From the NCBI GenBank assembly GCA_963663165.1, contig OY760175.1, forward strand, positions 1,792,001-1,856,000: a stretch of 64,000 nucleotides of DNA, written 5' to 3'. Below are positions 3,044 through 20,489 of the stretch, piece after piece. The position numbers and the translations under genes were made by a program. The first letter of the stretch is position 1. The number at the start of each line of letters is the position of its first letter. A model generated the notes under the pieces. It was not told the DNA's origin. It made no database searches and worked only from the letters and a program-made list of their open reading frames with translations. The stretch comes from an uncultured Desulfospira sp. Its GTDB lineage: Bacteria; Desulfobacterota; Desulfobacteria; Desulfobacterales; Desulfobacteraceae.

Positions 3044-6000
3044 ATGAATGCTGTTACCAGAAACGGATGGGCTTCACATTTTGCCGTTGTCATTATTATG
3101 ATATCGGCCTGTTTGTGTTTCCTGCCTTATTCTTCTTCTTTTAGCAGCGAAGCATCCCCTTCAATCATCACATCCCCTGATTATGTCGATACCGGCCCCA
3201 TCTCTCTGGATACGGGCAGCTTAAGCGCCACAACCCAGACCGACTGGCGGGCCACCTACACCATAGAAACCGATGAAACCGGCAATACCGCCACATTCAT
3301 CCAAAAAGCTTCGGAAGCCGTCAACGCAGCCATATCCGCCATTGGCGATCCGGTAGACATGGCAAGCGGTGAGTTCTACACGGAAGAAAATCCCGATTTC
3401 CTGATCAAATCCCGGGGGCTTGATTTATCCATTATCCGTAAATACAGAAGCCAATTGATCTACAACGGCCCCTTTGGGTATGGCTGGACCTGGAAGCATG
3501 CAGAGCGCATCCTGCCCCTGAGCGGGGGGGACGTCAAGTATTATAAAAACAACGGTGACGCCCTGGATCTAACCTCCAACGGGAACGGGACATATACCTA
3601 TCCTCCGGGGTCCGAGTTTATTCTGGCCATAGAATCCGGCCAATACGTCATCACCCAAAACCGGACCCGGCAAAAATCCTATTTTTCCGACCAGGGGTAT
3701 CTGGTCAGGAAAGAGGACCGGTTCGGCAATACCCTGACATTTGGATATGGCAATACCAGCTATCCGGGTCAAATTACCGCCATAACGGACGGCCTTGGCA
3801 GATCCCTTACCCTGGCCTATAACTCAAACGGTAAAGTCATCAGTATCACGGACTTTGAGGGCCGGTCCTGTTCCTACCTTTACAGTGACATAAGTTCCGG
3901 AGACGGGCTTGGAGACGACCTGATTGAGTTCAGAGGCCTTGATTACCAAACCAGCCTTGATAACGCCACCCGGTACGAATATTTGTCCAATCAGGAAAAC
4001 GTATACCTGAACCATAACATGACCAAGTACACCCTGCCGGGCGGGGATTATCTTGAGATCGGGTATTATAAAAACGACCAGGCGGCCTATCATACCAACG
4101 CCAAGGGCGAGACCTTCAACTTCATGTACAGCCGGTTGAACCGGTATGCAGAAACCTGGAACGAAGAGGGGTATTACCGGAAGGTCTTTTTCAACGAAGC
4201 CAATGACGTTATCCGGGTCGCCAATGAGGACGGCACCATTGAACAGATGGAGTATGATGAATACGGCCATCACAACAAGATTTCTCATACGGATGGCAAC
4301 GGCTATACCACCACGTTCCAATACTATCCAGACGGTGCAGCCGATCCGCAAGCTTATGTCAAAAAACGGAATCTGTATCTTAAAACCGATGCCATAGGCC
4401 GCGCCTGGACTTATCAGTACAATGATACAAACAACGTCTATGCACCGTCCCAGGCAACAGACCCTGCCGGTAATATCACCCGGTTTGAATATTATACCAA
4501 CGGCAGCCTGCACAAAAAAATCCAGGCACCGGGGTATGCCTTTGATGCCAATGGTGACCTTGTATCGAACACAAACGCCCCGGGTTTTGAAACCGTATAC
4601 GAGTATGACGCTTACGGGAATATCACCAGAATCACGGATCCGTCAGGCCAATATAAAGAACTGACCTACGATACAAACAGTCTTTATCTTGTGACCCAAA
4701 AAGATAAACGGGGCAACGAAACCCAATACCGGTACTACGAGGATTTTACGGAAAACATGCCCATAGGGGCGGTTAAATCCGTAACGGTCAAATCCGGAAC
4801 CAGTGAATACACCACCACCTATGAGTATGACCAGCTGGGCCGGAAAACCAAGGAAACAGATCCGCTATCCCAGGCAACCCAATACCAGTACACCCTTGAC
4901 GGGAAGCTTGAAAAAATCACTAAGCCCAACGGTGCCGTAACCCAACATATCTATGACACGGCCAGGGACATCGTGTCCGGAGCCCAGATCATAGAAACCA
5001 TAGATCCGTTGGGTAATTCCGTGCACTTTTCCTATGACGCCACAGGCAAGCCGATTAAAAAGCAGGATAAGAACGGGAACGTTTTCACCTTTGCCTATGA
5101 CAAAATGGGCCGCCTCGCCAAAGAGGTTGATCCATTCAGGGCCGTCAAACACTATGTTTATGACGGCAACGGCAACAAAACCGCTATTAAGCTTTATGAT
5201 CAGGCTGGAGTTCTGCTCAAGGAAACCCAATTCACCTATAACGCCGCCAACCAGCTAGTGGAAAAAACCATCCCCTGCGACTTTGAAGAAGATGGGTGTG
5301 AAAAGACGGTTCAGTACCAATACACCCTTGACGGTAAACCACAGAGCCAGACCATTGTTTTTCCGGAAGGGGACGATTTAGTCACCTATTATGAATACAA
5401 TGCCCTGGGCCAGTTAATACAGGAAACCAAAGGATACGGAACTGATGACGCCCGGGCCACCCAATACAGACATGACGCCCTGGGCCGGTTGACCCGGACC
5501 ATATTCCCCTTAGGCAATTCTGAGGTCCGTGAATATGATGCCAACGGCAATGTAACTGCCGTAAAGATCTATGACCAGTCCGGCACCCTGCTGGAAGAGA
5601 CTGAAAATATTTATGATGCCCGTAATCTTCTGGTTGAAACCGTCGATCCCCTGGAAAACAGCACATACTACACCTATGACGCCCTTGGAAGAAAAACGGA
5701 ACAATTTCAATTCCTGACCGAATCCGGGGATATGATCCAGTACCAGTGGCAGTATGATGCCGTGGGCAACCTGGCCCAGGAAACCGATCCCCTGGGCCGG
5801 CTGACCCGGCACGGATATGACCTGAACGACCAAAAGGCCAAAACCGTTGACGCCCTGGGCCAGACCACTGCATTTGAGTACGACCCCAACGGGAACCTGA
5901 CATCCGTTACCAATCCGGACCAAAGCCGGACCACAACCTATTATGATGCCCTGAACCGGAAAATCGGTGTTGAAGATGAGCTGGGCCATATCCAAACCTT

Positions 6001-8911
6001 TGATTACGATGAAGACTCCAACCTGGTGGCTCACCTGGATGCCCGGAAGGGGATCACCACCTTTGAATATGACGCAGCCAACCGGCTGAGAAGAAAAACC
6101 AATGCCCTGGGAAATACTGAAGAGACCGAATATGACCCGGCCGACCGGATCATCCGGAAAACAGACCCACGGGGAATTATAACCCTGCTTTCATATGATG
6201 CCGCAAGCAACCTGATCAGCCAAACCCTGGCTTCCGGCACAGATGATGAGACCGTCACCCAGTTTGAATATGACCTCAACAACCGGAAAACCCGGGAGAT
6301 CCATGTAATAACCGAAGGGAACCAGATTACGGCCTTTGAGTATGACGATCGGGGCTTGCTGACCCACAGGAAAAACGGGTTTCACACCGGTTCCCCGGAA
6401 ACCTGGGAGTATGAATATGACGAAGCCGGGCAACTGACGGCAACCACTGACCCCAACGGCAACACCACCCAGGTGTTCTATGATGCCGTTGGCCGCAAGA
6501 AAGCCCAAACCCAGGCCCAGGGCCTGGTGAAATATTACTGGGAGTACGACCTAGCCGGAAACGTCACCCTTGAAAGAAAACCCGAGGGAGAAGAAATCCA
6601 GAACGCCTATGATGCCCTCAACCGTCTTGTTCTGGAAACCAGGGGAGGCGACCAGCGCCGGTTTGAATATGACAGCAGGGGCCGTCTTACCCGTGAAGGA
6701 AACTTTAACGGGGATGCCACGCAATATCAATATGATTCAGCCGGCAGAATGATTCAAAAAACAGAAGCCGCCGGTACGGTCGATGAAGCCGTAAGTACGT
6801 ATGAATATGATGAAAACGGTAACCTGGTTGCTGTCACCAATCCTTTGCTCAAAACAGTGTCCTTTGAATATGATGCATTGAATCAGCGTATTACAGAAAC
6901 CGACAGTGACGGGGATTCAAAAACCATCACCTATGATGAAAACGGCAATGTCCTGGCCATTGAGAAAAAGGACGGCACAGACATAGAGTATGTCTGGGAT
7001 AATCTGAACCGGAAGACCGAGGTAATAGTTGGCAGCACCACTAAGCAAACCTTTGGTTATGACGAGCTTTCCAGGCTGGTTACTGCAACAGACAGCACCC
7101 ACACAACCACGTTCGCTTACAACGACTACGGACGCCTGGTAACAGAAACCCAAGGGTCTTATGAAGTTGCAAAGCTCTACGATGCCAACGGAAATAAAAC
7201 CCAAATTACCTATCCTTCAGGCCGGGTAGTTGAAAAAACCTACAATGAAAATGATGCCCTGTCAGAAATCCTATATCAGGGCAGTTCCATTGCAAGTCTT
7301 ACCCATGACCGGAACAACCGCCTGACAGCCGTGTCCTACGGAAACGGGACAGGCCTTGCCCTGGCATATGATGAACGGGAACGTGAAATCTCAAGAAGTT
7401 ATACAGGTTCCCTCTTTGCCCAGACAACGGAATATGACGCCCAGGGCAACATCCTCGAAGAGGCGTTAAATCGAAACGGCACCAGCCAGACAAAAGATTA
7501 CACCTACGACCATCTGGACAGGGTTGTCACAGCCACGCCTTTAACAACCTGGGATTATGATGCTGTGGGCAACTGGCTGTCTACCAACCAGAACGGTGCT
7601 GCCGAAACCAGAATGTCCAATGATGACAATGAATACACATCCATTGACGGTACGGCCTATACCCATGACGCCAACGGCAACCTGACCACGGACGGAACAA
7701 AAGACTATGTTTACGACTGGGCAGACCGGCTTATCCGGATAGAGGAGAGCTCCCAGATCCTGGCTGAGTACACTTATGATGCTGTGAACCGCAGGGTCAC
7801 CAAAACGGTGGGAACAACCGTAACCACCTTCATTTACGACGAAACAGATGTCATTGAAGAATACACCGACGGTGTATTTGACCGGGCCTTTGTTTACCGT
7901 AATACCATTGATAAACCAATCCTTCTGGAAACCGGCAGCCAGCTTTATTACTACATTACCGGGCGCCAGGGAAGCGTCCGGGCAATTGTTGATGACACCG
8001 GGACGTTGGTGGAATCGTACGAGTATACCCCCTTTGGCCTGATGACCATCTACGACAACCAGGGACAGGACATCACCGCAACCGGCTCCGCCATCAGCAA
8101 CCCGTTCGGATACACCGGCAGAAGATGGGATGGTGAATCCGGCCTGTGGTATTACCGAAACCGGATGTACTCTGCTGAATTAGGCCGGTTTCTCCAGCGG
8201 GACCCGGCCGGGTATGTCGATGGGCTTAATCTTTATATCTACGTCTCAAATAACCCTTTGCGGTTCACTGACCCTGACGGATTGATGGCGAAGGCTGCTT
8301 ATGACTATGTCAGCACTGATGTGTCAAATTGGTATGATAACAGTTTTTCATCAGTAATCTACGAAGATACCCCTGATAGAAAATACCTGCCGGTCATGAC
8401 GAATAATAATGACCTGCCTTTTTTAAGTGCTGCTATTCAAAATAACCTTCTTGCTCCTGCATGGAATACAGCAGCGAGCAGCCTCAATACTTTAAAGCAT
8501 GTTCAATCCGGCGTGCCGGTTTCTGAGTGGGAGCTTTTAGAAACTGCAGCTCTTATGGCACCTCTATCCAGAACTGTTACGAATAGTGCGAAGTATATTG
8601 GTTCTAAAATAGGCCCAAAGAGGGGAGTATTTCCCAAGAACGCAGATGATCTTCTATCCGAAATTCCAAGAAATAAAAAAGGACAAATTATCCCAAGTGA
8701 CAAGGTACGCATCCGTCCTGAGCAACACGCACTCAAACCTGGTGAAACATATGCACCACGGCACCATGGCCAACATTATCATGTCGAAATAAGAAAAAAC
8801 GTTAACAAAAGCTGGAATAATAAGAAAAACGTTATAAAAGTAAAGCCAGACAACTACGTTCAAGGTGAAGGAACTGGATTCTTGCCTGGTGAAAAATATC
8901 CGGGACTTTGA
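3044..8911 (+). CDS. rhs: Full-length Rhs/YD-repeat polymorphic toxin (signal-peptide-like N-terminus, DUF6531-like domain, HYH-motif toxin tip)
   Basis: 1955 aa; GDPVDMASGEF and GPFGYGW motifs; many YDxxGRL repeats; core end YVSNNPLRFTDPDG; AT-rich tip with RHHGQHYHVE. Confidence 0.95.
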   Translation: MNAVTRNGWASHFAVVIIMISACLCFLPYSSSFSSEASPSIITSPDYVDTGPISLDTGSLSATTQTDWRATYTIETDETGNTATFIQKASEAVNAAISAIGDPVDMASGEFYTEENPDFLIKSRGLDLSIIRKYRSQLIYNGPFGYGWTWKHAERILPLSGGDVKYYKNNGDALDLTSNGNGTYTYPPGSEFILAIESGQYVITQNRTRQKSYFSDQGYLVRKEDRFGNTLTFGYGNTSYPGQITAITDGLGRSLTLAYNSNGKVISITDFEGRSCSYLYSDISSGDGLGDDLIEFRGLDYQTSLDNATRYEYLSNQENVYLNHNMTKYTLPGGDYLEIGYYKNDQAAYHTNAKGETFNFMYSRLNRYAETWNEEGYYRKVFFNEANDVIRVANEDGTIEQMEYDEYGHHNKISHTDGNGYTTTFQYYPDGAADPQAYVKKRNLYLKTDAIGRAWTYQYNDTNNVYAPSQATDPAGNITRFEYYTNGSLHKKIQAPGYAFDANGDLVSNTNAPGFETVYEYDAYGNITRITDPSGQYKELTYDTNSLYLVTQKDKRGNETQYRYYEDFTENMPIGAVKSVTVKSGTSEYTTTYEYDQLGRKTKETDPLSQATQYQYTLDGKLEKITKPNGAVTQHIYDTARDIVSGAQIIETIDPLGNSVHFSYDATGKPIKKQDKNGNVFTFAYDKMGRLAKEVDPFRAVKHYVYDGNGNKTAIKLYDQAGVLLKETQFTYNAANQLVEKTIPCDFEEDGCEKTVQYQYTLDGKPQSQTIVFPEGDDLVTYYEYNALGQLIQETKGYGTDDARATQYRHDALGRLTRTIFPLGNSEVREYDANGNVTAVKIYDQSGTLLEETENIYDARNLLVETVDPLENSTYYTYDALGRKTEQFQFLTESGDMIQYQWQYDAVGNLAQETDPLGRLTRHGYDLNDQKAKTVDALGQTTAFEYDPNGNLTSVTNPDQSRTTTYYDALNRKIGVEDELGHIQTFDYDEDSNLVAHLDARKGITTFEYDAANRLRRKTNALGNTEETEYDPADRIIRKTDPRGIITLLSYDAASNLISQTLASGTDDETVTQFEYDLNNRKTREIHVITEGNQITAFEYDDRGLLTHRKNGFHTGSPETWEYEYDEAGQLTATTDPNGNTTQVFYDAVGRKKAQTQAQGLVKYYWEYDLAGNVTLERKPEGEEIQNAYDALNRLVLETRGGDQRRFEYDSRGRLTREGNFNGDATQYQYDSAGRMIQKTEAAGTVDEAVSTYEYDENGNLVAVTNPLLKTVSFEYDALNQRITETDSDGDSKTITYDENGNVLAIEKKDGTDIEYVWDNLNRKTEVIVGSTTKQTFGYDELSRLVTATDSTHTTTFAYNDYGRLVTETQGSYEVAKLYDANGNKTQITYPSGRVVEKTYNENDALSEILYQGSSIASLTHDRNNRLTAVSYGNGTGLALAYDEREREISRSYTGSLFAQTTEYDAQGNILEEALNRNGTSQTKDYTYDHLDRVVTATPLTTWDYDAVGNWLSTNQNGAAETRMSNDDNEYTSIDGTAYTHDANGNLTTDGTKDYVYDWADRLIRIEESSQILAEYTYDAVNRRVTKTVGTTVTTFIYDETDVIEEYTDGVFDRAFVYRNTIDKPILLETGSQLYYYITGRQGSVRAIVDDTGTLVESYEYTPFGLMTIYDNQGQDITATGSAISNPFGYTGRRWDGESGLWYYRNRMYSAELGRFLQRDPAGYVDGLNLYIYVSNNPLRFTDPDGLMAKAAYDYVSTDVSNWYDNSFSSVIYEDTPDRKYLPVMTNNNDLPFLSAAIQNNLLAPAWNTAASSLNTLKHVQSGVPVSEWELLETAALMAPLSRTVTNSAKYIGSKIGPKRGVFPKNADDLLSEIPRNKKGQIIPSDKVRIRPEQHALKPGETYAPRHHGQHYHVEIRKNVNKSWNNKKNVIKVKPDNYVQGEGTGFLPGEKYPGL

Positions 8912-9258
8912 TTATGATAAAAAGGGATTCAGTAAATTTTGAAATAGGTTTCGCTGATGGAGAAGTTATCTCGTATAATCGAAAAAACGATAATTTGATA
9001 ATATCGGTAAAAGCATGGAACGAGAAAACAATCTTGGTTCTTTGCAAAGATTTAATAGGTTTTTTTGATAAGGGTGCTTGGGATATCTCAGATTTTTGTG
9101 AAGTTAAATCTGAAACTAATTTGCTTAGGGAAGTATTGAATAGGCAATTTGAGAAGCCCCCCAAAGATCATGGATATAAAGTGTTTCAGTTTTTAGATAT
9201 CGATGATCAAGTAGTTATAGAAGTTATCTGCTCTGAGATAGAAATTAACATGGAATAA
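8908..9258 (+). CDS. Putative cognate immunity protein of the intact Rhs
   Basis: Small AT-rich acidic ORF overlapping the Rhs stop. Confidence 0.75.
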   Translation: MIMIKRDSVNFEIGFADGEVISYNRKNDNLIISVKAWNEKTILVLCKDLIGFFDKGAWDISDFCEVKSETNLLREVLNRQFEKPPKDHGYKVFQFLDIDDQVVIEVICSEIEINME

Positions 9259-9347
9259 AAAGACAGGAGACAGGACGGACAGAGACAGGGGACAAATTAT
9301 GCCCTTTTAATTTTCCACCGTCTTTGCTACCCCACCGCCTGTCATAA

Positions 9348-9584
9348 TTCGAAGGAGATAATCTGGTAAGTCTTAAAACAGTTGATACCACAGGCAAAAC
9401 TTGGCTCAAAAGAATGCAAGACCATATTGATGACTTAGGAACAAGAGGAGCCACAGTTGATGGTCAGCAAGCAAATATGATTTTAGATTTACGAGTACAA
9501 CCTGGTGGTTCTTCAACCGCTCAGTCCTTAATTCAATATGGGCGTGAAAACAACGTAACTGTAATACTCAAGGAATTTAATTAA
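9348..9584 (+). pseudogene. 5'-truncated toxin tip resembling CdiA-CT EC869-o11-type restriction-endonuclease-fold nucleases
   Basis: Open frame without a start, not in the ORF track: FEGDNLVSLKTVDTTG...LDLRVQPGG...LIQYGRENNVTVILKEFN*; stop abuts the ATG at 9585. Confidence 0.6.
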
Positions 9585-10304
9585 ATGTCATTAGCTGTAG
9601 AAATTATTTTTAAATATATGGCACTTGAGCCCGTTGTTATCTGGCAAAAGATTATGAAGGTGCATTCAAATATTTTTCCTTCAAATCATAAGGGGACATT
9701 TTATGATAGTGAGATTACCTTTTCTAACGTTGAAAAAGCTATAAAGAAAAAAAACAAACCACATTTTCTTATTGAATTTGATAATGCTGTATTTAGATAC
9801 AGTTCTGTTGGTAACCATGACCATTCTTTTTTAACAATCAAAAAATGTATTAAAAAGATAAACGATACCCATAACTGGGTAAGCCCATTTCTTGTTTGCG
9901 ACGCTTTTGTGCAGGCTCGGGTGTATAATAAGGAATACGAGTTTTGGCAAAATGCATCCGATCCATTAGAATATGAGTCGGCAGGAAGGAAATATGACCA
10001 TCTCCCTATGAAATCTAATGGTCTTCCACCTCCATTGGAGCAAATAATTATTGACACATCTGCAAATCCTGGACGGCGTATACTGCGTGATGGTTACGTT
10101 GAAGCTATCGGATCATTAATGTGGTTGGGAAAACAGTTTTGGCAGTTAACAGGGACAAAGCAAGAAACAGTATCAAATGTAGGTTGGATAAATTGCAAAC
10201 ATATATCATCTAATGTTTTACTCATTAAAGCCAAGGATGATCTCTTTTCAAGCAGTGAGGATGGCAAGCTTCAAGATAAGCTGCGGTCATTGCTTTTTCC
10301 GTGA
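9585..10304 (+). CDS. Putative orphan immunity protein
   Basis: 239-aa AT-rich ORF starting immediately after the toxin-fragment stop. Confidence 0.7.
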   Translation: MSLAVEIIFKYMALEPVVIWQKIMKVHSNIFPSNHKGTFYDSEITFSNVEKAIKKKNKPHFLIEFDNAVFRYSSVGNHDHSFLTIKKCIKKINDTHNWVSPFLVCDAFVQARVYNKEYEFWQNASDPLEYESAGRKYDHLPMKSNGLPPPLEQIIIDTSANPGRRILRDGYVEAIGSLMWLGKQFWQLTGTKQETVSNVGWINCKHISSNVLLIKAKDDLFSSSEDGKLQDKLRSLLFP

Positions 10305-10484
10305 TTCGGGGCCGGTCCGAGCTAACCATAAGGAATCAAACGACTAATTGTTTTAGACGGGGCTTAAAACCATTTTAAACAACCGTTTTGGGCCCCCAAA
10401 TAACCATTTTAAGAAAATCGATGCCATAAAAAGCCCATTCGGTTTCATTTCCTTTTGCCAAAAAAGAATGACAGGGATAACCAT

Positions 10485-10583
10485 ATGAACTTCCTTACCA
10501 GAAACGGATGGGCTTCACATTTTGCCGTTGTCATCGTTATGATATCGGCCTGTTTGTGTTTCCAGCCGTATTCTTTAGCTTTT
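10485..10583 (+). pseudogene. Truncated copy of the Rhs 5' end (upstream leader conserved from ~10400)
   Basis: MNFLTRNGWASHFAVVIVMISACLCF is near-identical to the Rhs N-terminus at 3044; breaks at a TGGAACTG stutter. Confidence 0.85.
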
Positions 10584-10660
10584 GGTGGGTGGAACTGGTG
10601 GAACTGGGGTTGGAACTGCAGTGCGTGGGGTCAGGTCTTGAAATATAAGATTTTACCAAC

Positions 10661-10930
10661 CTAAGGAAAATACTTATAAATTTCACCCCGATGCAGGAAC
10701 CTGACAAAGCAGACGGTATCCTCTTCAATAACAAGGCCCAGGCGGTAGTCACCCATTCTGATACGGTAGTGGCTGCCCTGGGCCTTTAATTTTTTAAGGT
10801 TCCGGATCGCGTGGATGTCCGGGGCCTCTTCCACTTCCTGTATGATCTGCCGGACCCGGTCGAGCAACGGCCTGTCTGTTTTGCGTTTTTTTAAGTCCTT
10901 GGCAAAACTCTTTTTAAAATCGAGGATCAC
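10661..10930 (-). CDS. Type II toxin, RelE/ParE family
   Basis: 89 aa; FKKSFAKDLKK...KKLK...YRIRMGDYRLG...HRGEIY. Confidence 0.88.
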   Translation of the reverse strand: MILDFKKSFAKDLKKRKTDRPLLDRVRQIIQEVEEAPDIHAIRNLKKLKAQGSHYRIRMGDYRLGLVIEEDTVCFVRFLHRGEIYKYFP

Positions 10931-11133
10931 GCCCGGCCTTCCAGTATATGAAATATCTCTTCTTTTGTGGCGGTGCCGGTGTTTTGCCCTTCCTGGATCG
11001 CCCGGCTCAGGGCAATGTCTTCCATGGCATCCACGATCATGTCATGGAAGATGTTCTGTTTTTCTTCGAGCATCTCGACAAGCGCTTCCTTGAAGACCTG
11101 TTTGAGCCTGCCCTCATCCATTACGGTCTGCAT
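10927..11133 (-). CDS. Putative antitoxin
   Basis: 68-aa acidic ORF overlapping the toxin start. Confidence 0.75.
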   Translation of the reverse strand: MQTVMDEGRLKQVFKEALVEMLEEKQNIFHDMIVDAMEDIALSRAIQEGQNTGTATKEEIFHILEGRA

Positions 11134-11152
11134 GGCGTCTCCTTACAAACAA

Positions 11153-11524
11153 TTAGGCCCGGGCCAGTTGTTCAAACTTATATTTTTTGATGAATGCATC
11201 CAGCAGGCTGGTCAGTACCTGCTGGTCTTCTTCGGGAAGCTGCTCTATCGCTTCGATATGCTTGAGAAGCTCCCGGCTTTTGATCTTGTTGATTGCCACG
11301 TTTGCTTCATCCCGCAGCAGGTAATCCAGGCTGACGTCAAACACGGAAGCAATTTTAACGACCATGTTGGTGGGCGGACAAACCACCCCCCGTTCGTATT
11401 TGGATATCAACTGGACATTCACGCCCAGTTTGTTGCCGAGCTGCCCCTGGGACAAGCCCCGGCCCTGGCGCAGTTTTTTTAACTTATCAGGCAATCCGGA
11501 TATAATGGCTTTGCTGTTATTCAT
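11153..11524 (-). CDS. XRE-family HTH regulator
   Basis: LKKLRQGRGLSQGQLG...ISKYERG...VSLDYLL; AAGGAGG RBS before the ATG at 11524. Confidence 0.9.
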   Translation of the reverse strand: MNNSKAIISGLPDKLKKLRQGRGLSQGQLGNKLGVNVQLISKYERGVVCPPTNMVVKIASVFDVSLDYLLRDEANVAINKIKSRELLKHIEAIEQLPEEDQQVLTSLLDAFIKKYKFEQLARA

Positions 11525-11830
11525 AAGCTCCTCCTTGCCTGTATTCTCTATAAATATGGGGCTGTGTGCAAACATATTTTTTCTTGACAATAACTTTAAA
11601 GGATACTAACTAAGCATATAAAGTTATGCTTTTTGTCGTAAAAAGCAAGTTTATTTTGATATCAGGGATGTTTTTAGAAAAGAAGGCCATCAACCCGAAC
11701 TCGCCAAAGTCAACCGGTTGATGGCCGAAAAAAACAAATCACAAAAGGCAAAGCCCGTTTGTAACCGTTTTCTTTTTCTATCATATCTCCCGGTAAAAAT
11801 TCAATCTGTGTAATCAAGGGAGGTGAACCT

Positions 11831-12142
11831 GTGACATTTACCCAACGGTTCTACGAGATCGCCTGCATGTTCCCGGTGATGACCAGCAAAGGCGTACAGC
11901 AAGGCGATATCCCCGGCATCAGGAAGGATCGGTTCTGTGCTGATGACCTGGCCGGGTTTGTCTATGAGGGCGGCGGCAGGGCCTGGAGCACCGGAGAAAA
12001 GCTTGTATTAGAATTTCTGCTGAATCTGTACAACCCGGGAGCCTTTGACAAGTTCAACATCGGCTTTGCCATGAACGTATGGGACCCCACCCATATGAGA
12101 GCCTGTTTTAAGGCCATGGCAAGGATTTACAGCGGAGAGTGA
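11831..12142 (+). CDS. Hypothetical protein of the mobile module
   Basis: GGGAGG RBS, GTG start, first gene of the primase operon. Confidence 0.65.
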   Translation: MTFTQRFYEIACMFPVMTSKGVQQGDIPGIRKDRFCADDLAGFVYEGGGRAWSTGEKLVLEFLLNLYNPGAFDKFNIGFAMNVWDPTHMRACFKAMARIYSGE

Positions 12143-12182
12143 CCCATGAACAGACAACGCCTTCGGAACAGCGGGATAAAAC

Positions 12183-14855
12183 ATGATAGAAAAAGAGACC
12201 ATAGAACGGATCAAAACATCTGTAGACCTTAAATCCCTGGTGGAGTCCAGGGGTATCGAACTCAAAAAAAACGGCAAGGGCTGGTTCGGCCTGTGCCCCT
12301 TCCATGATGACAAAACCCCGTCTTTATCCGTCACCCCGTCCAAAAACGAATGGCACTGCTTTGGTTGCGGTGCCGGAGGAGATGTGATCCGGTTTGTGGA
12401 GATGTTTGACCGGGTGGATTTTAAAGAGGCGGTTAGACGGCTTGGCGGTGATGAGGTAGAAAAAACCGCAGTTAAAATAAAAAAAGAGGACCCGGCCCCG
12501 AAACTGACACCCGGCCATATCAAGCTGTTCAACCGGGTTATTGAATTTTACCACGAAGCCTTTGCCGAAGATGGCCGGGCACGGCAGTACCTGAAAGGAC
12601 GGGGCATCACGGATAACTCCCTGCCTTCCGACCACCGGATCGGCTTTGCCAACGGCTCCCTGCTGAACGTGCTGCCCAATGATGCCAAAATCACAGGGCA
12701 GTTAAAAGATCTGGGCATCCTGAACGTCAACGGGAAGGAGCATTTTTACGGCTGTGCCGTGTTCCCGCTCTACGATTTTAACGGGAACCCTGCCGGGATG
12801 TATGGCCGCCGTATTGACGGCATGACCCAAGGCGCCGGCCATCTGTATCTTCCCGGCAGCCGGGAAGGTCTGTTCAACCGCCAGGCAGCCAAGGCCCACA
12901 AAAAGATTATCCTTACAGAATCCGTTCTGGACAGCCTGACCCTGATCAATGCCGGGTTTAAAAACACCATCCCGTGTTACGGCACCAACGGCCTGACCCA
13001 ATCCCATATCAAGTGGCTTACACAAACCCAGGTAGAAACCGTCTACATATGTTTTGACGCAGACGAGGCAGGCCAGGCCGCCACGCCTGTGGTTGGTGAG
13101 CACTTAACCCAAGCCGGGATCACCACGCACCCCATAACACTTCCCAACGGCCAGGACATCAATGATTTTTTTCTTTTAACCGCCAATCCCAAAGAGGGGT
13201 TCAACGCCCTGATTGGTCAGGCCAACCCTGCGGTTAAAAAAGAAAAGGACCTGAAAGTTACCAAAACAGATTTTGGCTTTACCATGGCGGTTGCCGACCG
13301 CAGATACGAGGTCCGGGGGATCAGCAAAAAAGGCGGCAAGCTTAAGGCCACGGTCAAGGGCATTGACCCTAAAAAACGCATGCACGTAGACACCGTGGAT
13401 TTTTACTCGGCACGGTCCAGGACCTTTCTTCTCAAGGGACTGGCTGACCTGTTCGGCGCAGACGAGGCTGCCGTTACCCAGGACCTTGCCAAGCTGACGG
13501 AACAGGCCGAACAAAACCAGGTTCCGGATCAGGACAACAAGGCTGCCACAGCCATGACGTTCCAGGACAAGACCGAAGCCTTGCGGTTCCTGGAGAACCC
13601 GGACATGTTCGCTGAGATCCTCACCGATTTTGAAACCCTTGGCTACACCGGAGAAGAGATGAACAAGCTGCTCTGCTACGTGGCGGCGATCTCCCGCAAG
13701 ATGGATCACCCCCTGTCGGTCATGATCCAGTCCAGGTCCGCCGCAGGCAAGTCCTATCTCCAGGACACGGCCCTGTCCCTTGTGCCCAAAGAAGATTATA
13801 TCAAGTACACCCGGCTGACGGACCAGGCCCTGTTTTACACGGGCAAGGAGAGTCTGAAGCACAAAATCCTTGCCATTGAAGAACTGGACGGCATGAACGG
13901 GGCCATCTACTCTATCCGCAGCATCCAAAGTTCCAAGGAGATCACCATTGCCTATACGGGCAAGGACAGTGCCACCGGCGAACAACGAACCATGGAGAAC
14001 AAGGTGGAAGGGCCGTTGATGGTCTTTATCACCACCACCCAGGTGGACATTGACGGAGAAACCGCATCCAGGTTCGTGTTCATCTCCATTGACGAATCCG
14101 AAGACATGACCAAAAAAGTCCTGGCCAAGCAGCGGCAGACCCACACCATGCAGGGCATGCTCAACAAGCTCAAATCAGAAGAGATTATTAAAAAGCACCA
14201 TAATGCCAACCGGATGATGCGGCCCCTTCATGTGTTCAACCCCTATGCCGAATTGCTGACCTTTACCAGCAGGTCTTTAAGGGCCAGAAGGGATCACACC
14301 AAATACCTGAACCTGATATCAGCCGTGGCCTACCTGTTCCAGTACCAGAAAAAGGTGCAGACCTTTGAATTTAAGGACCAGTCCATTGAATACGTGAACG
14401 TCACCCTGGCCGACATAGAAAAGGCCAACACCATTGCCAACTACGTTTTGGGCAGAAGCCTGGATGATCTAAGCCCCCCTTCAAGGAAACTGCTCATGCT
14501 GATCCGGCAGATGTGCCGGGACAAAAAAGAAGACTTCCATTTTAACCGCCGCCAGATCCGGGAGTACAGCGGATGGAGCGACTTCCAGGTCAGGACCCAT
14601 ATTCGGCAGCTTGAAGACCTGGAGTACATCTACTCGCTCATGGGCAAACGGGGCAAAGAATACGTTTACGAACTGGCCTACAACGGCGAAGGAGACGACG
14701 GTAAACCCTTTGTGATCGGGCTTACAGACATTAAGCAGTTAAAAGAAAAAGCCAAAGAAGCCGGTATCACCGATGACAACGAGGGGGAAAATTACAACTA
14801 CGAGCATGAAGGCGTTAACTACGAGGGTGGTTCAAGCCCCCATAGAGGGCACTAA
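12183..14855 (+). CDS. CHC2 zinc-finger/Toprim primase fused to a P-loop ATPase/helicase-like domain
   Basis: CPFHDDKTPS...WHCFGC; Toprim TESVLD and FDADEAG; Walker A-like SRSAAGKS; Walker B-like ILAIEE. Confidence 0.9.
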   Translation: MIEKETIERIKTSVDLKSLVESRGIELKKNGKGWFGLCPFHDDKTPSLSVTPSKNEWHCFGCGAGGDVIRFVEMFDRVDFKEAVRRLGGDEVEKTAVKIKKEDPAPKLTPGHIKLFNRVIEFYHEAFAEDGRARQYLKGRGITDNSLPSDHRIGFANGSLLNVLPNDAKITGQLKDLGILNVNGKEHFYGCAVFPLYDFNGNPAGMYGRRIDGMTQGAGHLYLPGSREGLFNRQAAKAHKKIILTESVLDSLTLINAGFKNTIPCYGTNGLTQSHIKWLTQTQVETVYICFDADEAGQAATPVVGEHLTQAGITTHPITLPNGQDINDFFLLTANPKEGFNALIGQANPAVKKEKDLKVTKTDFGFTMAVADRRYEVRGISKKGGKLKATVKGIDPKKRMHVDTVDFYSARSRTFLLKGLADLFGADEAAVTQDLAKLTEQAEQNQVPDQDNKAATAMTFQDKTEALRFLENPDMFAEILTDFETLGYTGEEMNKLLCYVAAISRKMDHPLSVMIQSRSAAGKSYLQDTALSLVPKEDYIKYTRLTDQALFYTGKESLKHKILAIEELDGMNGAIYSIRSIQSSKEITIAYTGKDSATGEQRTMENKVEGPLMVFITTTQVDIDGETASRFVFISIDESEDMTKKVLAKQRQTHTMQGMLNKLKSEEIIKKHHNANRMMRPLHVFNPYAELLTFTSRSLRARRDHTKYLNLISAVAYLFQYQKKVQTFEFKDQSIEYVNVTLADIEKANTIANYVLGRSLDDLSPPSRKLLMLIRQMCRDKKEDFHFNRRQIREYSGWSDFQVRTHIRQLEDLEYIYSLMGKRGKEYVYELAYNGEGDDGKPFVIGLTDIKQLKEKAKEAGITDDNEGENYNYEHEGVNYEGGSSPHRGH

Positions 14856-14958
14856 GTGATTTTTCTTTTAACCGCTAAAAAGCCCTTATACCAAGGCATT
14901 GAAACGAATATACCCCCAAGTTCGAGGCAACCGGGGCAAAAGTAATTAAGGAGCAAGC

Positions 14959-15150
14959 ATGACATTTATAGAAGCCGTAAGGGAACTTGACCTGAAAGAT
15001 CCGTTGACCCGGGAGCCTGTACGCCCAAGTGAACTGATACGGATACTCAAGGAAGATGTTGTTCTGTCTGTGGAGCGGCCCGGCTCCTGGGAAGGGTCGA
15101 ATATGCTGGAGGTACTGACCAGCCACGGCTTTTTTACCCATCAGGATTGA
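14959..15150 (+). CDS. Small hypothetical protein
   Basis: AAGGAG RBS; 63 aa; between the primase and the recombinases. Confidence 0.6.
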   Translation: MTFIEAVRELDLKDPLTREPVRPSELIRILKEDVVLSVERPGSWEGSNMLEVLTSHGFFTHQD

Positions 15151-15161
15151 AAGGAGGGAAT

Positions 15162-16124
15162 ATGGTTAAAAACCTGTTGTTCCGGTTCCGGGAAAACCTC
15201 AGGGTGACAGGCAGAAGCCCGTCAACAGTAAAGGCATATGCCATGCACACAAGGGATTTTTTTGATGTCATGGAGATCAGGGCTGTTAAAAAGGTTACCA
15301 CGCCTGTTATAGAATCCTGGATCGCAGGGCTGCGTGACTCAAAGAGTGCCAAGGGCAAGCCTTACAGTGATGCAACCATCCAAATTAAGATACGCTCAAT
15401 CAAGCGGTTTTTTGAGTTTCTGGAGAGGACCAACATTATCTTTATCAATCCTGCAGAGTTTATCAAGGAATCCAAAGTAAAGACCCCGATCAAGCCGGCA
15501 CTGACTTTTGAAGAAGCGAAACGGATACTGGACCAGCCAAACTTAAGCACAATAACCGGCATCCGGGACCGGACCATACTGGAGGTTTTTTACACCACCG
15601 GGATACGGCTCAACGAGTTATGTTCCCTGACCATTTATGACGCAGATCTGCAGGGCGGTGTGCTGCGGATCAACAAGGGCAAAGGAGCCAGGGACCGGGT
15701 GGTGCCCTTAGGCAAACATGCAGTCAAGTTCCTGCGGGAGTATATCTCCAAGGTCAGGCCTAGGTTTGCCAAAAAAAACAGGACCTGCCGATCCCTGTTT
15801 ATGGGTTCTTTGGGCAAGCCCGTGTCCAAGGCGGTTGTAGCCTTCATGATCCTTAAAAACCGGAAAGCGGCTAAAATAAAAAAACAAGTTACTGCCCACA
15901 CGTTCCGCCACACCTTTGCAACGGTGCTGGTAAAAAACGGTGCGGACATCCGGGCGGTCCAGAAGATGCTGGGCCATGTGGATATCAGAACCACCCAAGG
16001 TTATATCCGGTCCCTGGGCCTGGATATTAAAAAGGAACACCGGAAAACCCATCCAAGGGAAAAGGACAAAGAAAACATCACCAACCCCAGGATAAAAGGG
16101 ATTATGGATCATCATGAAAGATAA
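15162..16124 (+). CDS. Tyrosine recombinase (XerC/D-like) 1
   Basis: TGIRLNEL, KGKG, HTFRH, LGH, TQGY catalytic set; AAGGAGG RBS. Confidence 0.95.
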   Translation: MVKNLLFRFRENLRVTGRSPSTVKAYAMHTRDFFDVMEIRAVKKVTTPVIESWIAGLRDSKSAKGKPYSDATIQIKIRSIKRFFEFLERTNIIFINPAEFIKESKVKTPIKPALTFEEAKRILDQPNLSTITGIRDRTILEVFYTTGIRLNELCSLTIYDADLQGGVLRINKGKGARDRVVPLGKHAVKFLREYISKVRPRFAKKNRTCRSLFMGSLGKPVSKAVVAFMILKNRKAAKIKKQVTAHTFRHTFATVLVKNGADIRAVQKMLGHVDIRTTQGYIRSLGLDIKKEHRKTHPREKDKENITNPRIKGIMDHHER

Positions 16125-17049
16125 TCCGTTCAAGCCGTATATTGATCAGTTCCGGCTGGCCCTGAAGGTCCGGAACCTGACCGGCAAGACCATTGAACAA
16201 ATCTGTTGGAAGCTGGGCAGGTTCACGGCCTGGCTGATGGAAAGCCAGGTCTTGTCTGTTGACGCCATCACCAAGGATGCGGTCAGGTCCTACCAGGTGG
16301 AGCTTTACCAGGCAATCAATGCAAGAGGCAGGCAGAACGGCGTGGCCTATCAAAATTCTATGATGTCTGCGGTCCGGCAGTTCACAAGGTTCCTGTATGA
16401 AAGGGACTTTATCGTGTCTGACCCGGCAAGGGACATCCAGTATGCCAAAATACCTAAAGCCCTGCCCAAGGGGATATTGAGCCCGGCGGAAGCCAGAAAG
16501 ATCATCCATGCCCCTGATATTACCAGCGTAATCGGATACCGGGACCGGGTGATCCTGGAGGTGCTTTATACCAGCGGTATCCGCAAAGAGGAGCTAAACC
16601 ACCTGACCCTGGCCGATGTGGACTGCCATGACGGTTTTTTGAGGATAGACAACGGCAAAGGGCAAAAGGACCGGATCGTCCCCTTGGGCCGGATCGCCTG
16701 CCGGTATCTTGAAAATTATATCACATCCGTCCGTCCGGAACTGATCAGGGACCCGTACAACACCCACCTGTTCCTATCCCTGAGAGGCAACCGGCTGTCT
16801 AAAAACGTGGTATGGGCACTGGTGAAAAAATACGCCAAAAAGGCAAAGATACGAAAAAACGTCCATCCCCATACGTTCCGGCACTCCTGCGCAACCGGCA
16901 TGTTGAAAAACAAGGCGGATCTAAACACCATCCGCAAGCTTTTGGGCCATACATCATTGAATACCACACAGATCTATACCCACCTGAATATCACAGAGTT
17001 AAAGGCGGTTCACAAGCAATGCCATCCCCGGGAGAAAGACAGAGAGTAG
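16114..17049 (+). CDS. Tyrosine recombinase (XerC/D-like) 2
   Basis: SGIRKEEL, GKGQK, HTFRH, LGH, TQIY; overlaps recombinase 1; both carry HPREKD near the C-terminus. Confidence 0.95.
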   Translation: MKDNPFKPYIDQFRLALKVRNLTGKTIEQICWKLGRFTAWLMESQVLSVDAITKDAVRSYQVELYQAINARGRQNGVAYQNSMMSAVRQFTRFLYERDFIVSDPARDIQYAKIPKALPKGILSPAEARKIIHAPDITSVIGYRDRVILEVLYTSGIRKEELNHLTLADVDCHDGFLRIDNGKGQKDRIVPLGRIACRYLENYITSVRPELIRDPYNTHLFLSLRGNRLSKNVVWALVKKYAKKAKIRKNVHPHTFRHSCATGMLKNKADLNTIRKLLGHTSLNTTQIYTHLNITELKAVHKQCHPREKDRE

Positions 17050-17384
17050 TTGTTTTTTCTTTTAACTGCGGTTTTTAAACAAGGATCGTCTCCGGTGCTC
17101 GGGCTTCACCCCTGGCGGGGTTCCGCTCCCTGCGCCCGGAGCCGGCCCTATTTTATGCCCACCCAACCACCCTTTAAATGCGGATGGCTGCGCCGCCTTA
17201 TTTTATATCCCCGCCCGCCCGGCGGAAGGGCTGTTCCGGCGCTACGGGCACGCCGGTCGCTCCACATTGCGTAAAGTCGTTGCGTTCGGCGTGTCCGATA
17301 AGGCGGCCTTATCAGACACGGCCGGTCCGTCACAGGTCTTGCAAACTGCCGCAATACCCGCGCCGGACCGCCTTCCCTCTCTAC

Positions 17385-17412
17385 ACTAGACATAACAAAC
17401 ATTATGTCTCCT
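17385..17412. other. dif-like tyrosine-recombinase core site (11-6-11)
   Basis: ACTAGACATAA-CAAACA-TTATGTCTCCT; perfect 8-bp inverted arms AGACATAA/TTATGTCT around a 6-bp spacer. Confidence 0.6.
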
Positions 17413-17758
17413 TTGCGCAATGCTCCGCTTCCTTTGCGCCCTGCGCACCTCCACAACCCTTCCGCTCCCCTTAAAAAAGGATGAAACCCCATTTTATATG
17501 CCGGCTGACGCCAGCACCAAGCATGCAGTTAAAAGAAAAAAACCATCCTCAATTTTATTTTTAACAGCCTGGGAAATCCTTTGATCAAAGGCTCAATCCA
17601 TAGTATGAATCACCAAAGAAGCAGTGGCAGAGTTTGGTTACGCTGAAATTAATTTTAGGTAAAAAACAGTTCTTTTACAACTTGGATAATCCGGATGGAA
17701 GGCTTGCCAATAAAGAGATTGCGCTTGGTTGGCAAAATCGTCTAATGGGATTATTTGT

Positions 17759-18619
17759 TCAAACAATCCATTGAGGTTCACAGATCCTGATGGCTTGATG
17801 GCGAAAAATACTGTTCAATGGATGTCTGATCATCCTATCCCTGGTCCGGACGACCTTTTATCGAGCGGCTTGCATTATCTATCAGATTCATTGGGGCAAC
17901 AAACAACTACAAATTGGGGGGATCAATTAGGGGCAACTATTTTAAAAACAACTGTTGATGTTGGCGCGGGTATTGTTGATTCTCCTGAAGCCTTGGCAAA
18001 TCAGACTTATGAATGGTCCAGAGATATTACAAATTGGAATAAATTACCAATATTGGGGACTAATGCTGTTGCTATGGCTAAGACAACCTCGGATTTTATT
18101 AATAATCCAAACTGGACAACAGGTTCTCAAATGGTTGGGGCATATTCTAGTGCGGTTTTATTAACTATAGGGGGAACGCAGCTCTTAAAAGGGCCTATTG
18201 GAAACATTGGGTCTAAAAATAAAGCAATAGGACTTGTTAAAAATGAATATCAAAATCTTATTTCTTCTGGGATGAGTCATCGAGAAATTGGCCCTGCCAT
18301 TTCAATCGCTCGAGATATGAAAGCTGGAAAATTTAGCCAAATTTATCGCAATGATTCGCTTGGCAACATGCCTTCAAATTTAAGCGATCCTATTGCCATC
18401 AGACTTTACAGTGCACCAGAGTATATAAAAACAAAAGGAATTGCTTCTCATTCTGAAATATATGCCGTAGATGAATTGCTAAAAGCAAGACCGAAAGCTG
18501 CGCTTGAAGATATCTCGGTGTTTACAATGGAGGTTAAAAAAGCATCATTACGCGGAACTTATAAACCTGCTTGTCCACATTGTGCTCATTTATTAGAAGG
18601 AGTTGACTACATTAAATAA
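17759..18619 (+). pseudogene. Orphan Rhs C-terminal toxin, YwqJ-like nucleic-acid deaminase
   Basis: Begins at SNNPLRFTDPDGLMA; deaminase Zn motifs SHSE and PACPHC. Confidence 0.85.
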
Positions 18620-18634
18620 TATGGATTACAGACA

Positions 18635-19033
18635 ATGACAAATAGAGTTAATGAAAATTATTTGGATTTCGATGGTGACCAAAGTATTCTTGACGGGAAA
18701 CCATTTACAGGCATTGGTTTTCTTGAACATCCTGATCATTCTCTGAAAAGAGAGTTCAACTATTTAGATGGATTTGAACATGGCTTATGCCAAGAATGGT
18801 ACTCCAACGGGCAGCTAAAGCGCAAATGGACAGCAGTACGTGGACAAGCAAAAGGAACAGTATATCAGTGGCATGAAAACGGAGAAAAAAAATCGGTAGG
18901 AGAATACGATTTCGGCGTTGAGACAGCATATAAGGAATGGGATGAAAAAGGGGAATTAATTATCGATAGAAAAATCGATGAAAATTCAAATCTTTATAGC
19001 TATTTAATGGATATGAAGGAGAAGCGGGGTTAA
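18635..19033 (+). CDS. YwqK-like (MORN-variant repeat) immunity protein
   Basis: GKPFTG, EWYSNGQLK, WHENGEKK, EWDEKG repeats. Confidence 0.85.
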   Translation: MTNRVNENYLDFDGDQSILDGKPFTGIGFLEHPDHSLKREFNYLDGFEHGLCQEWYSNGQLKRKWTAVRGQAKGTVYQWHENGEKKSVGEYDFGVETAYKEWDEKGELIIDRKIDENSNLYSYLMDMKEKRG

Positions 19034-19050: not shown

Positions 19051-19551
19051 TTATAAAGGGTTTTTGCTAATTTGATCAACGTGTTTTAAGAGAGTCGGGA
19101 TTCTATATTTTCCGTGCATTTGAGAAATATGTTTTGCGGCAAGTTGCTGATCAATACCTGCGGCCGTAATATAGAGGGGTTTTTTACTTTTCCCTCTAAC
19201 GATTTTATCAGCCATATCGGATTGTTTGAAGCTGTTTTTAGCAACTCCGATTATTGGGGTTTTTTGATTCAATTTATTGTATAGATGAGCTCCTAAGCCC
19301 GGAGATTGGTGGATATCTAACCATACATAGCCATCAATTAAAATAAACTCAGGTGATTCAGGGATAAGTTTTAAGACTTTAAGAATACACGGCAGCTCTC
19401 GGAGATAAAATTGCCCTGGGACATACGGTTCGATTTTAAAAACTGTTGTATGGAATTGAGCAGTAGGGCTTGAGTCAGTCCATTCTTTAAACAATATGCA
19501 TGCGGCAACTGCCTGGTGATCGTAATAATGAACGTCTACACAAGCTATCAT
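19051..19551 (-). CDS. nfi: Endonuclease V family protein (short form)
   Basis: VDVHY, YVPGQFYLRELP, ILIDGY, PGLGAHL, IIGVAK motifs. Confidence 0.85.
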   Translation of the reverse strand: MIACVDVHYYDHQAVAACILFKEWTDSSPTAQFHTTVFKIEPYVPGQFYLRELPCILKVLKLIPESPEFILIDGYVWLDIHQSPGLGAHLYNKLNQKTPIIGVAKNSFKQSDMADKIVRGKSKKPLYITAAGIDQQLAAKHISQMHGKYRIPTLLKHVDQISKNPL

Positions 19552-19620
19552 CAGGTCTTATTTACCTTTTTTGATTTTAGCGTTAATTCGGTCGGTTTTG
19601 TACCGGTCCCGGGTAACGCT

Positions 19621-19847
19621 AAATATAAGATTTTACCAACCTAAGGAAAATACTTATAAATTTCACCCCGATGCAGGAACCTGACAAAGCAGACGGTATC
19701 CTCTTCAATAACAAGGCCCAGGCGGTAGTCATCCATCCTGATACGGTAGTGGCTGCCCTGGGCCTTTAACTTTTTAAAGTTCCGGATCGCGTGGATGTCC
19801 GGGGCCTCTTCCACTCCCTGTATGATCTGCCGGACCCGGTCAAGCAA
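19621..19847 (-). pseudogene. 5'-truncated near-identical copy of the RelE/ParE toxin gene
   Basis: Direct repeat of 10641-10867 (~227 bp, about 6 mismatches by eye). Confidence 0.9.
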
Positions 19848-20101
19848 TGTCATAGATTGGCCAGGATTGGGGGGCGGGCCAAGCCAATCATCTGATATTA
19901 AATGTTACGTGCCAAAATCCTGTCATACTTTTTACCAAATTACAGAGCACAATTAAAGGGTAAACGCCCAAAACAGGGGCTTAAAACAAGCTTAATTCAA
20001 TGTTTTTGGCCCCCAAATGTCCATTTTAAGAAAATCGATGTTATAAAAAGCCCATCCGGTTTCATTTCCTTTTGCAAAAAAAGAATGATAGGGAAAGATG
20101 T

Positions 20102-20489
20102 ATGAATTCTACTGCCAGAAACGGATGGGCTTTTCATATTGCCGTTATCATCATGTTATCGGTCGTTTTATGGTGTTTGCCATGTTATTCCGGCACTTCC
20201 TGCGTGTGCCGCAGCGAGGCCGTATCCCCCTCAACTACCACCGTCGGCACCATCTCACTGGATACAAGCACTTTAAGCTCTACTACCCAGACCGACTGGA
20301 AAGATAAATACACCACCCTGGTCAATGGTGTAGAAACAATCGTTAAAAAAGCCTCAGAAACCATGAACGCGGCAAAGACCGCCCTGGGCGACCCGGTAGA
20401 CATGGTAAGCGGCGAGTTCTACACGGAAGAAACCCCCGATTTCCTGATTAAGTCCCGGGGGCTCGATTTATCCATTATCCGAAAATACA
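20102..20489 (+). pseudogene. Truncated Rhs 5' end (third leader copy)
   Basis: MNSTARNGWAFH...GDPVDMVSGEFYTEE...GLDLSIIRKY, then breaks at a CGCGACTTGGGGTCA stutter. Confidence 0.9.

Follow-up and report, generated by a model that had tools for sequence, protein, structure and literature searches.

This analysis concerns a 64,000-nucleotide stretch of DNA, hereafter the window, from the genome of an uncultured Desulfospira sp. (G000; 6.74 Mb, single contig). At 8246-19033, the original prediction, made from the letters of the window, placed a candidate integrative element that swaps Rhs toxin tips. Here, we compare this locus with its relatives. We use G001 for a genome of the same genus and L followed by a number for individual loci. 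The locus closes a tandem rhs array in G000; three full-length rhs genes lie upstream of the window. Within the window the order is an orphan tip (694-2118), a full-length rhs gene (3044-8911), the candidate element and then a displaced orphan tip. Gene families were called with Pfam and NCBIfam; PHROGs was used for the small proteins hyp1 and hyp2, and for the open reading frame (ORF) at 9585-10304. The features are as follows.

3044-8911, + strand: full-length rhs, with 21 stretches of Pfam RHS_repeat and DUF6531; core to 8293, putatively cargo-derived tip at 8294-8911
8908-9258, + strand: candidate immunity gene of the cargo tip, 116 amino acids, low G+C; assigned by position and composition
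9585-10304, + strand: cargo ORF, 239 amino acids, 34% G+C; no match in Pfam, NCBIfam or PHROGs
10661-10930, - strand: ParE toxin (Pfam)
10927-11133, - strand: RelB-like antitoxin (Pfam)
11153-11590, - strand: helix-turn-helix repressor (XRE) of the RstR family; Pfam HTH_3, NCBIfam NF041951 at 88.7 bits (cut-off 80)
11831-12142, + strand: small protein hyp1, 103 amino acids; no match in Pfam, NCBIfam or PHROGs
12183-14855, + strand: DnaG-type primase with C-terminal PF27228, 890 amino acids; CHC2 zinc finger, DNAG_N and Toprim
14959-15150, + strand: small protein hyp2, 63 amino acids; no match in Pfam, NCBIfam or PHROGs
15147-16124, + strand: Int1, Xer-like tyrosine recombinase (Pfam Phage_integrase, E 5e-42)
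16114-17049, + strand: Int2, Xer-like tyrosine recombinase (Pfam Phage_integrase, E 8e-44), overlapping Int1
17050-17744, + strand: right-end non-coding region, ~700 bp, with 17-mer repeats
17729-18619, + strand: ORF of the displaced orphan tip, the tip running from 17759; stop codons close the frame 17 codons upstream
18635-19033, + strand: candidate immunity gene of the displaced tip, a small ORF 3' of it
19621-19847, - strand: ParE-gene fragment, 91-96% identical to the backbone left edge in G001 and G074

Family calls match the predicted gene order at 8246-19033: toxin-antitoxin pair, XRE repressor, primase, Int1, Int2 and orphan tip. The finer labels fared less evenly. The tip of the rhs gene (8294-8911), named an HYH toxin, is present and has no family match in Pfam or NCBIfam; neither candidate immunity ORF has a match in the same databases. 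The displaced tip had been called a deaminase. Its only such match, to YwqJ-deaminase, scores 24.3 bits and falls under the Pfam cut-off of 25.9. The first 144 residues of this tip are 65% identical to the end of a 1161-amino-acid open frame in genome G062. For the primase, Pfam recognises the CHC2 and Toprim domains, and the P-loop is read from an invariant AAGKS in the alignment of relatives, without a family model.

The ParE/RelB pair forms the left edge of a conserved backbone, which starts at ~10622. Homology begins at 10657 in comparison with G001 and at 10622 in comparison with G074, a complete genome from another genus of the same family. ORF 9585-10304 lies outside the backbone common to the window, G001 and G074. 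The hyp1 gene is kept in relatives, where it is sometimes placed 3' of Int2, and hyp2 is 100% conserved in G001.

The orphan at 694-2118 is of the classical type. It keeps ~830-870 bp of Rhs core, close to the ~870 bp first estimated, and shares its core end and tip start (..LNNPLRYTDPDGLMARTAWDYTER) with the full-length rhs gene directly upstream (G000:C1:1785034-1791003). It is an apparent duplicate of that preceding gene's tip, not a foreign tip.

Junctions in the window and in G001

The unit spans window 8243-17761 (9,513 bp) and is bounded by two related recombination sites. Both junctions encode the peptide SNNPLRFTDPDGLMAK. Comparing 8246-8293 with 17759-17806 gives 9 mismatches in 48 nucleotides (8 in 47), all synonymous, one being a first-position change (CGG/AGG); this recount agrees with the 8 mismatches over 47 bp reported originally. 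The orphan tip at 17759 therefore retains 48 bp of core, too short for displacement by homologous recombination. The two attachment (att) sites are as follows.

8232-8259, + strand: attL, inside rhs; left arm TTTATATCTAC (codons L-Y-I-Y), centre GTCTCA, right arm AATAACCCTTT (N-N-P-L) on the cargo side
17745-17772, + strand: attR; left arm ATGGGATTATT, centre TGTTCA, right arm AACAATCCATT (N-N-P-L of the displaced tip); arms matching at 8/11

attR is a palindrome with two 11-bp arms either side of 6 bp (11-6-11), and its right arm is made of the Rhs codons N-N-P. In attL, the left arm consists of rhs codons L-Y-I-Y and is not a palindrome arm, as expected of a hybrid site. Both sites have TCAAA at the centre. 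Rightward of 8243, the attL side is 95% identical to the sequence behind the element right end in G074. Across all six frames of the 6.74-Mb genome, there are only 8 occurrences of a strict core-end motif. The attR-type palindrome pattern also has 8 matches genome-wide. Two of these are attR itself, matched once on each strand; the remaining six all lack an adjoining Rhs tip. Hence, attR is the sole such site beside an Rhs tip in G000.

Mapping the crossover in the window from four rhs paralogues gave no sharp boundary. The four are only ~80-85% alike near the core end, so the boundary is unreadable here. G001 has five backbone copies, at two rhs loci, that are 90% identical to window 10657-17751; the cargo differs between window and G001 despite this identity. 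At loci L028 and L029, two full-length rhs genes are each followed by an identical tip, immunity gene, 283-bp spacer and backbone. Upstream of the site the two paralogues are 80-88% identical. From GCCCTA on, identity is 100% over at least 1,300 bp, and the final difference between them is the codon immediately 5' of GCCCTA. The displaced orphan tips also differ, with divergence beginning after ..GCCCTAAATAATCCT.

Thus, in loci L028 and L029/L027, both crossover boundaries fall inside GCCCTAAATAATCCT, within the same 15 bp, which include the palindrome centre. Homologous exchange of cores that are 80-88% identical would not produce such a switch, and the element has no core sequence for pairing beyond the site itself. 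The claim of a site-specific junction is borne out by these two independent insertions, which switch from paralogue to element sequence at an 11-6-11 palindrome. So is the claim that the tip upstream of the backbone moves with the element, since the same cargo lies in two G001 rhs genes and the displaced tips are different. In G074, an element right end is followed by the first 370 bp of the window's cargo tip, which again indicates mobility of cargo. In sequencing run X8, the G001 backbone has a depth of ~445, compared with ~100 for its flanks, and this fits four to five copies per genome. Separately, G001 has tandem 8,344-bp units across a contig break (L027, L029-L030).

Relatives, tandem copies and a second target

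Searching with an alignment of primase relatives yielded 48 loci in species genomes and 78 in metagenomes. We counted over these 126 loci plus the window, taking as an Int2 occurrence at least 50% identity with a complete C-terminus on the plus strand. Under these rules, there are 64 Int2 occurrences in total. An 11-6-11 palindrome (arms matching at 8/11 or better) lies within 1.5 kb downstream in 35. Another 22 show no site but also fall short of 1.3 kb of downstream DNA, and are uninformative; the final 7 have no site at threshold. The inverted-arm core site is thus found at attR in 35 of 42 informative cases. Note that the background rate for the palindrome is 26 in 13.48 Mb. Three of the seven cases below threshold (the second copy in L041, L118 and L124) keep the Rhs core-end motif, with arms matching at 6-7/11. 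The other four are L049, which continues into an Rhs core fragment, and L043, L071 and L121, whose right ends are truncated.

It had been proposed that homologues of the primase, Int1 and Int2 would consistently be followed by an Rhs junction. This is the case, just downstream of Int2, for 38/42 informative occurrences in public contigs. Among the same occurrences, no intact element right end lies beside non-Rhs DNA, the contrary case named by the original prediction. In L115 and L116, Int2 is identical and the orphan tips are different. Named hosts are mostly Desulfobacterales, Desulfobulbales and Geobacteraceae.

Aligning the sequences before the orphan tips of all relatives reveals a conserved palindrome of 11-bp arm, ~6 bp and 11-bp arm. 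The left arm, centre and right arm are common to all aligned attR sites, and the right arm corresponds to Rhs codons N-N/D-P-x. The palindrome is conserved in lineages whose primases share just 57-95% identity. The target had been described as the whole YxYxxNNP motif; the alignment corrects this to the codons [V/A/C]-x-N-N/D-P. Two examples are given below.

Desulfosarcina alkanivorans (L040): left arm ACCGGATTAAC, centre GTCCAA, right arm AATAATCCGGT; arms matching at 9/11
L037: left arm AAAGGATTATT, centre GTCCTA, right arm AATAATCCTTT; arms matching at 11/11

A second kind accounts for nine of the 35 sites, with left arm ACGTGGTCATT, centre TAYCAA and right arm AATGACCACYT (AATGACCAC.., codons N-D-H-L). 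The right arm falls within a conserved Rhs motif, Y-x-N-D-H-L-G-T-P, which precedes the core end by ~90 codons; the left arm has changed with it and still matches (8-10/11). In the Int2 tree, elements with the N-D-H-L target form one clade (support 100/99); support in the Int1 tree is weaker (71/91). The retargeting is one evolutionary event and so offers no statistical test. A change of arm with a change of target is what a functional recombination site would be expected to do.

Next to be considered are the junctions between copies. G074 contains two tandem copies of the backbone, 95% identical to window 10622-17805. The element proteins are 94-100% identical to those of the window; the adjacent rhs core is 53.5% identical at the protein level. 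A near-identical backbone beside so different an rhs core implies transfer between genera. The junction between copy 1 and copy 2 consists of the left part of the window's attR (..AATGGGATTATTTGT) followed by the right part of its attL (AATAACCCTTTGCGG.., 370 bp at 95%). This is the predicted attP sequence, fixed in a tandem array. The second case is L046, a 7,536-bp Desulfobulbaceae contig whose ends overlap exactly over 151 bp, from a point inside the site. The resulting 7,385-bp unit, circular or tandem, comprises site, tip, repressor, primase, Int1 and Int2. Hence, the joint of 17758-to-8246 type, which had been anticipated, exists in the G074 tandem and in the terminal overlap of L046. 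Both could be tandem DNA, not a free circle.

Other arrangements were also seen. L080, an 11,175-bp metagenome contig, has an exact 123-bp terminal overlap, and is either a circle of larger size or a cyclic path through tandem repeats. Besides a full element, its unit comprises an Rhs core fragment, two tips (A and B) and an additional repressor gene. In L041 (at 11110 and 12332) and G074 (reverse-complemented, at 9636), orphan tips with no element in front still have either the final 75 bp of an element or its left arm. We read these tips as probable scars of copies with a deleted backbone. The ParE fragment at window 19621-19847 may similarly be what is left of an earlier copy that carried the tip at 17759 as its cargo. 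The DNA behind the displaced tip (window 19051-20857) contains an endonuclease V fragment (- strand) and N-terminal Rhs fragments with DUF6531 (19902-20754). It ends with a 283-bp stretch (20575-20857); in G001, the same stretch separates the cargo immunity gene from the backbone.

G000 itself has a second, degraded module (G000:C1:1252249-1261000; L014 8249-16819), which ends at an Rhs core fragment and tip. It contains a repressor, a small ORF and a primase truncated at residue 240, together with one recombinase, a recombinase fragment and a Fic gene. An inserted IS21-type transposon with a RepB-type primase is also present, as is the G+C-rich spacer block described below, at 91% identity. 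There is no full-length rhs near this module. A first motif pattern, which proved too narrow, had placed the module in a non-Rhs context; this was rejected, since an Rhs core fragment and tip follow.

Proposed mode of action and competing explanations

Int1 and Int2 both retain the catalytic R, HxxR, H and Y of tyrosine recombinases. They are XerC/XerD-like, with best equivalog scores of 236-252 bits; these are under the XerC/XerD cut-offs of 330-335, and the site is inside rhs. The integron integrase model, TIGR02249, gives 113-123 bits against a cut-off of 265. The search with Int2 also found many trios of adjacent tyrosine-recombinase genes in G000 (e.g. 8992-11610, 2334591-2337209, 2618718-2621336 and 4929583-4932201), which we take to resemble multi-copy 'recombinase in trio' elements.

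The C-terminal half of the primase is Pfam PF27228, a family named for a Methanothermobacter plasmid ORF. A PDB sequence search with this half returned nothing useful. The AlphaFold model of the primase has a mean predicted local distance difference test (pLDDT) score of 61.8, with values below 50 over residues 448-738. In the right-end region, a 17-mer occurs three times (17053-17069, 17525-17541 in inverted orientation, and 17553-17569), and two copies form a conserved inverted repeat ~190 bp before the site. The perfect 17-bp inverted repeats at 17053-17069 and 17525-17541 flank a G+C-rich block of 455 bp (17070-17524). This block has three ATTTTAT-containing repeats and several hairpins, and is absent from the L036 and L058 spacers. 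It could be an origin, a set of accessory binding sites or an inserted small element. An Rfam search of 16900-17900 gave no match.

We think it probable, at about 0.82, that window 8243-17761 represents a single member of a family of small integrative elements, 7.4-9.5 kb in size, that target the end of the rhs core. This supports the original model in its main points, as far as comparative data can. Comparison between genomes establishes the position and structure of the site, the reproducibility of junctions, the movement of cargo with backbone, spread across genera, and the tandem or attP-type junctions. The degraded second copy in G000 counts in the same direction, as it too ends at a piece of Rhs core with a tip. 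Location at the same point in many sulfate-reducing bacteria suggests a dedicated machine for swapping toxin warheads.

The proposed element comprises Int1 and Int2, the primase with PF27228 and the RstR-family repressor, together here with the ParE/RelB addiction pair. A promoterless Rhs tip and its immunity gene would be carried beside a single att site. The site is dif-like in layout, with two 11-bp inverted arms round ~6 bp, one of which is spelled AAY RAY CCN and so encodes N-N/D-P. Since this arm lies in conserved Rhs codons, a target is available in each rhs gene of the host clade. Recombination between the element site and the rhs core end would cause in-frame insertion. The rhs core would then read into the cargo tip (8294-8911), with the cargo immunity gene next. 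Simultaneously, the former tip and its immunity gene would be shunted behind the element as a silent orphan (17759-19033). Int1 and Int2 probably act jointly on two different half-sites. The element presumably passes through a circle, which the primase and 17-mer repeats would replicate. Direction may be set by the repressor or by the 63-amino-acid hyp2, a possible directionality factor.

Several observations weigh against this reading. Within the window, attL and attR have only TCAAA in common at the centre and 9/48 positions differ, so this copy may be old or no longer able to excise. Contigs of runs X6 and X7 that hold the window show neither the 17758-to-8246 nor the 8246-to-17759 joint, and element depth equals flank depth; note that this check used assembled contigs, which drop rare forms. 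The attB left arm (codons L-Y-x-Y) is unlike the palindrome arm. No transfer genes are seen in the element. In L049, one of the cases with no site at threshold, the Rhs core fragment that follows is joined elsewhere, and L043, L071 and L121, with truncated right ends, fit poorly. Finally, survey cases are partly non-independent, many loci being related or duplicate records: G001 contributes three, L037 matches L080 at 99.99% identity, L047 and L143 share their site, and L115 and L116 have the same Int2.

Some candidate joints and sites were set aside. A secondary site in L049 at K-G-N-P-I-Y was ruled out, its spacing being unlike 11-6-11. Joints 8304-to-20003 and 10464-to-19864, with short sides of 57 and 30 nucleotides, are read as paralogous or repeated sequence. 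A 20857-to-10657 joint in runs X8 and X11 is the G001-type arrangement. None of these joints has a bearing on excision.

The alternative that survives best, though we regard it as unlikely, is a resident integron-like platform. The module would then be a non-mobile part of the rhs locus, capturing tip and immunity cassettes at the palindrome. Successive orphan tips in L041 (11110, 12332) and G074 (9636), each preceded by the element's last 75 bp or left arm, are what such capture would leave. Furthermore, according to the accessible part of bioRxiv 10.1101/471110, Bacteroidales have immunity arrays that are associated with a recombinase and contain integron-like repeats. However, a resident platform should not occur as five copies of the whole backbone at two G001 rhs loci, nor be 95% identical across two genera with rhs cores at 53.5%. 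Similarly, the backbone closes on itself in the 7.4-kb contig unit of L046, and the integrases score far under the integron-integrase cut-off.

Far less credible is RecA-dependent homologous displacement of C-termini between cores, with the primase/integrase module a chance passenger in the array. In its favour, the same array has the classical orphan with ~830-870 bp of core that duplicates the preceding rhs tip. In the accessible text of PMC2935791, the published model also has a circular intermediate, formed by homologous recombination. Even so, the element side has no core homology beyond the site, and the G001 paralogues switch in the same 15 bp. Moreover, the palindrome junction is kept across lineages with primases 57-95% identical, and the lineage with another target has a matching arm.

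That the element targets the site without bringing a tip, the attL tip being resident and the downstream orphan of other origin, would account for the different cargo of window and G001 beside 90% identical backbones, but is very improbable. Insertion without cargo would cut the gene, and yet the frame continues into a complete tip at every attL. Two G001 rhs genes with different orphans behind them have one and the same tip, immunity gene and 283-bp spacer, and in G074 the start of the window's tip directly follows an element right end.

Returning to the favoured integrative element, a more ambitious version is conceivable, and we offer it tentatively. The elements may form a 'warhead exchange' system of self-replicating mini-replicons, with paired recombinases, a codon-written half-site and always in-frame fusion. 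Specificity would then be re-programmable, the arm following the Int2 lineage (N-N-P to N-D-H-L). Site-specific recombination, not homologous exchange, would drive most turnover of Rhs tips in Desulfobacterota. By analogy with CTX, integration might be by irreversible single-strand exchange, followed by primase-driven copying out of tandem arrays.

Comparison with known systems

A literature search found no description of such an element; the possibly relevant Martinkus et al. 2026 is outside its coverage. Acquisition of tips by Rhs and other polymorphic toxins has so far been explained by homologous recombination, and this element family provides a testable alternative. It would be a mobile toxin and immunity unit that plugs in frame into any rhs of the host range, via a site spelled in codons. 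It would also explain orphan tips with nearly no core sequence. The attP-type, attL and attR sequences are defined substrates for a biochemical test. The family would represent a natural case of recombinases and target shifting together, and recombinases that fuse in frame at a conserved peptide motif could have practical interest.

Some genomic islands and prophages, such as those islands that target tRNA genes, integrate at the 3' end of a gene and restore it with their own copy. Here, too, att extends over the end of the gene that is targeted, and a new 3' end would come from the element. Unlike in those cases, the replacement is a new toxin domain, and the gene product would be changed rather than preserved.

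The CTX phage of Vibrio integrates at dif by Xer recombination. Common to CTX, other dif elements and the elements described here are a dif-like site layout, XerC/XerD-like recombinases, an RstR-family repressor and frequent tandem arrays. In contrast, our elements encode their own recombinase pair and insert at a coding junction in rhs instead of the site where chromosome dimers are resolved. In addition, they are without phage structural genes, and their recombinases fall below the XerC/XerD equivalog cut-offs.

Integrons, rAID-1 arrays and polyimmunity loci resemble the present case in having a tyrosine recombinase by an array of toxin or immunity cassettes with repeated sites. In the accessible text of Ross et al. 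2019 (bioRxiv 10.1101/471110), rAID-1 denotes recombinase-associated immunity arrays of Bacteroidales with integron-like repeats, recognised by a recombinase at least 44% identical to that of the Bacteroides fragilis rAID followed by low-G+C immunity genes. XerC/D genes lie beside the polyimmunity loci of Zhang et al. 2012 (PMC3482391). The rAID-1 and polyimmunity arrays hold immunity genes and a single recombinase, with no primase and no in-frame toxin fusion, whereas here the whole module would be mobile.

The nearest parallels are to be found at rhs genes. The portion of Steele et al. 2017 available to us (PMC5727410) reports that integrase-like genes recur by Rhs in Snodgrassella and Gilliamella of the bee gut, and suggests a role in capture. 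That portion of the paper gives no site, junction, boundaries or mechanism; hence, these genes are likened to ours by description, not sequence. In Jackson et al. 2009 (PMC2935791), likewise taken from its accessible part, Rhs tips are displaced by homologous recombination via retained core fragments, a circular intermediate is postulated, and no integrase is known to accompany Rhs. As in the displacement arrays described there, a new tip and immunity gene are joined to the core and the old tip lies downstream as a silent orphan. Unlike in those arrays, the orphan here has 48 bp of core, and a recombinase-type palindrome lies beside two recombinase genes.

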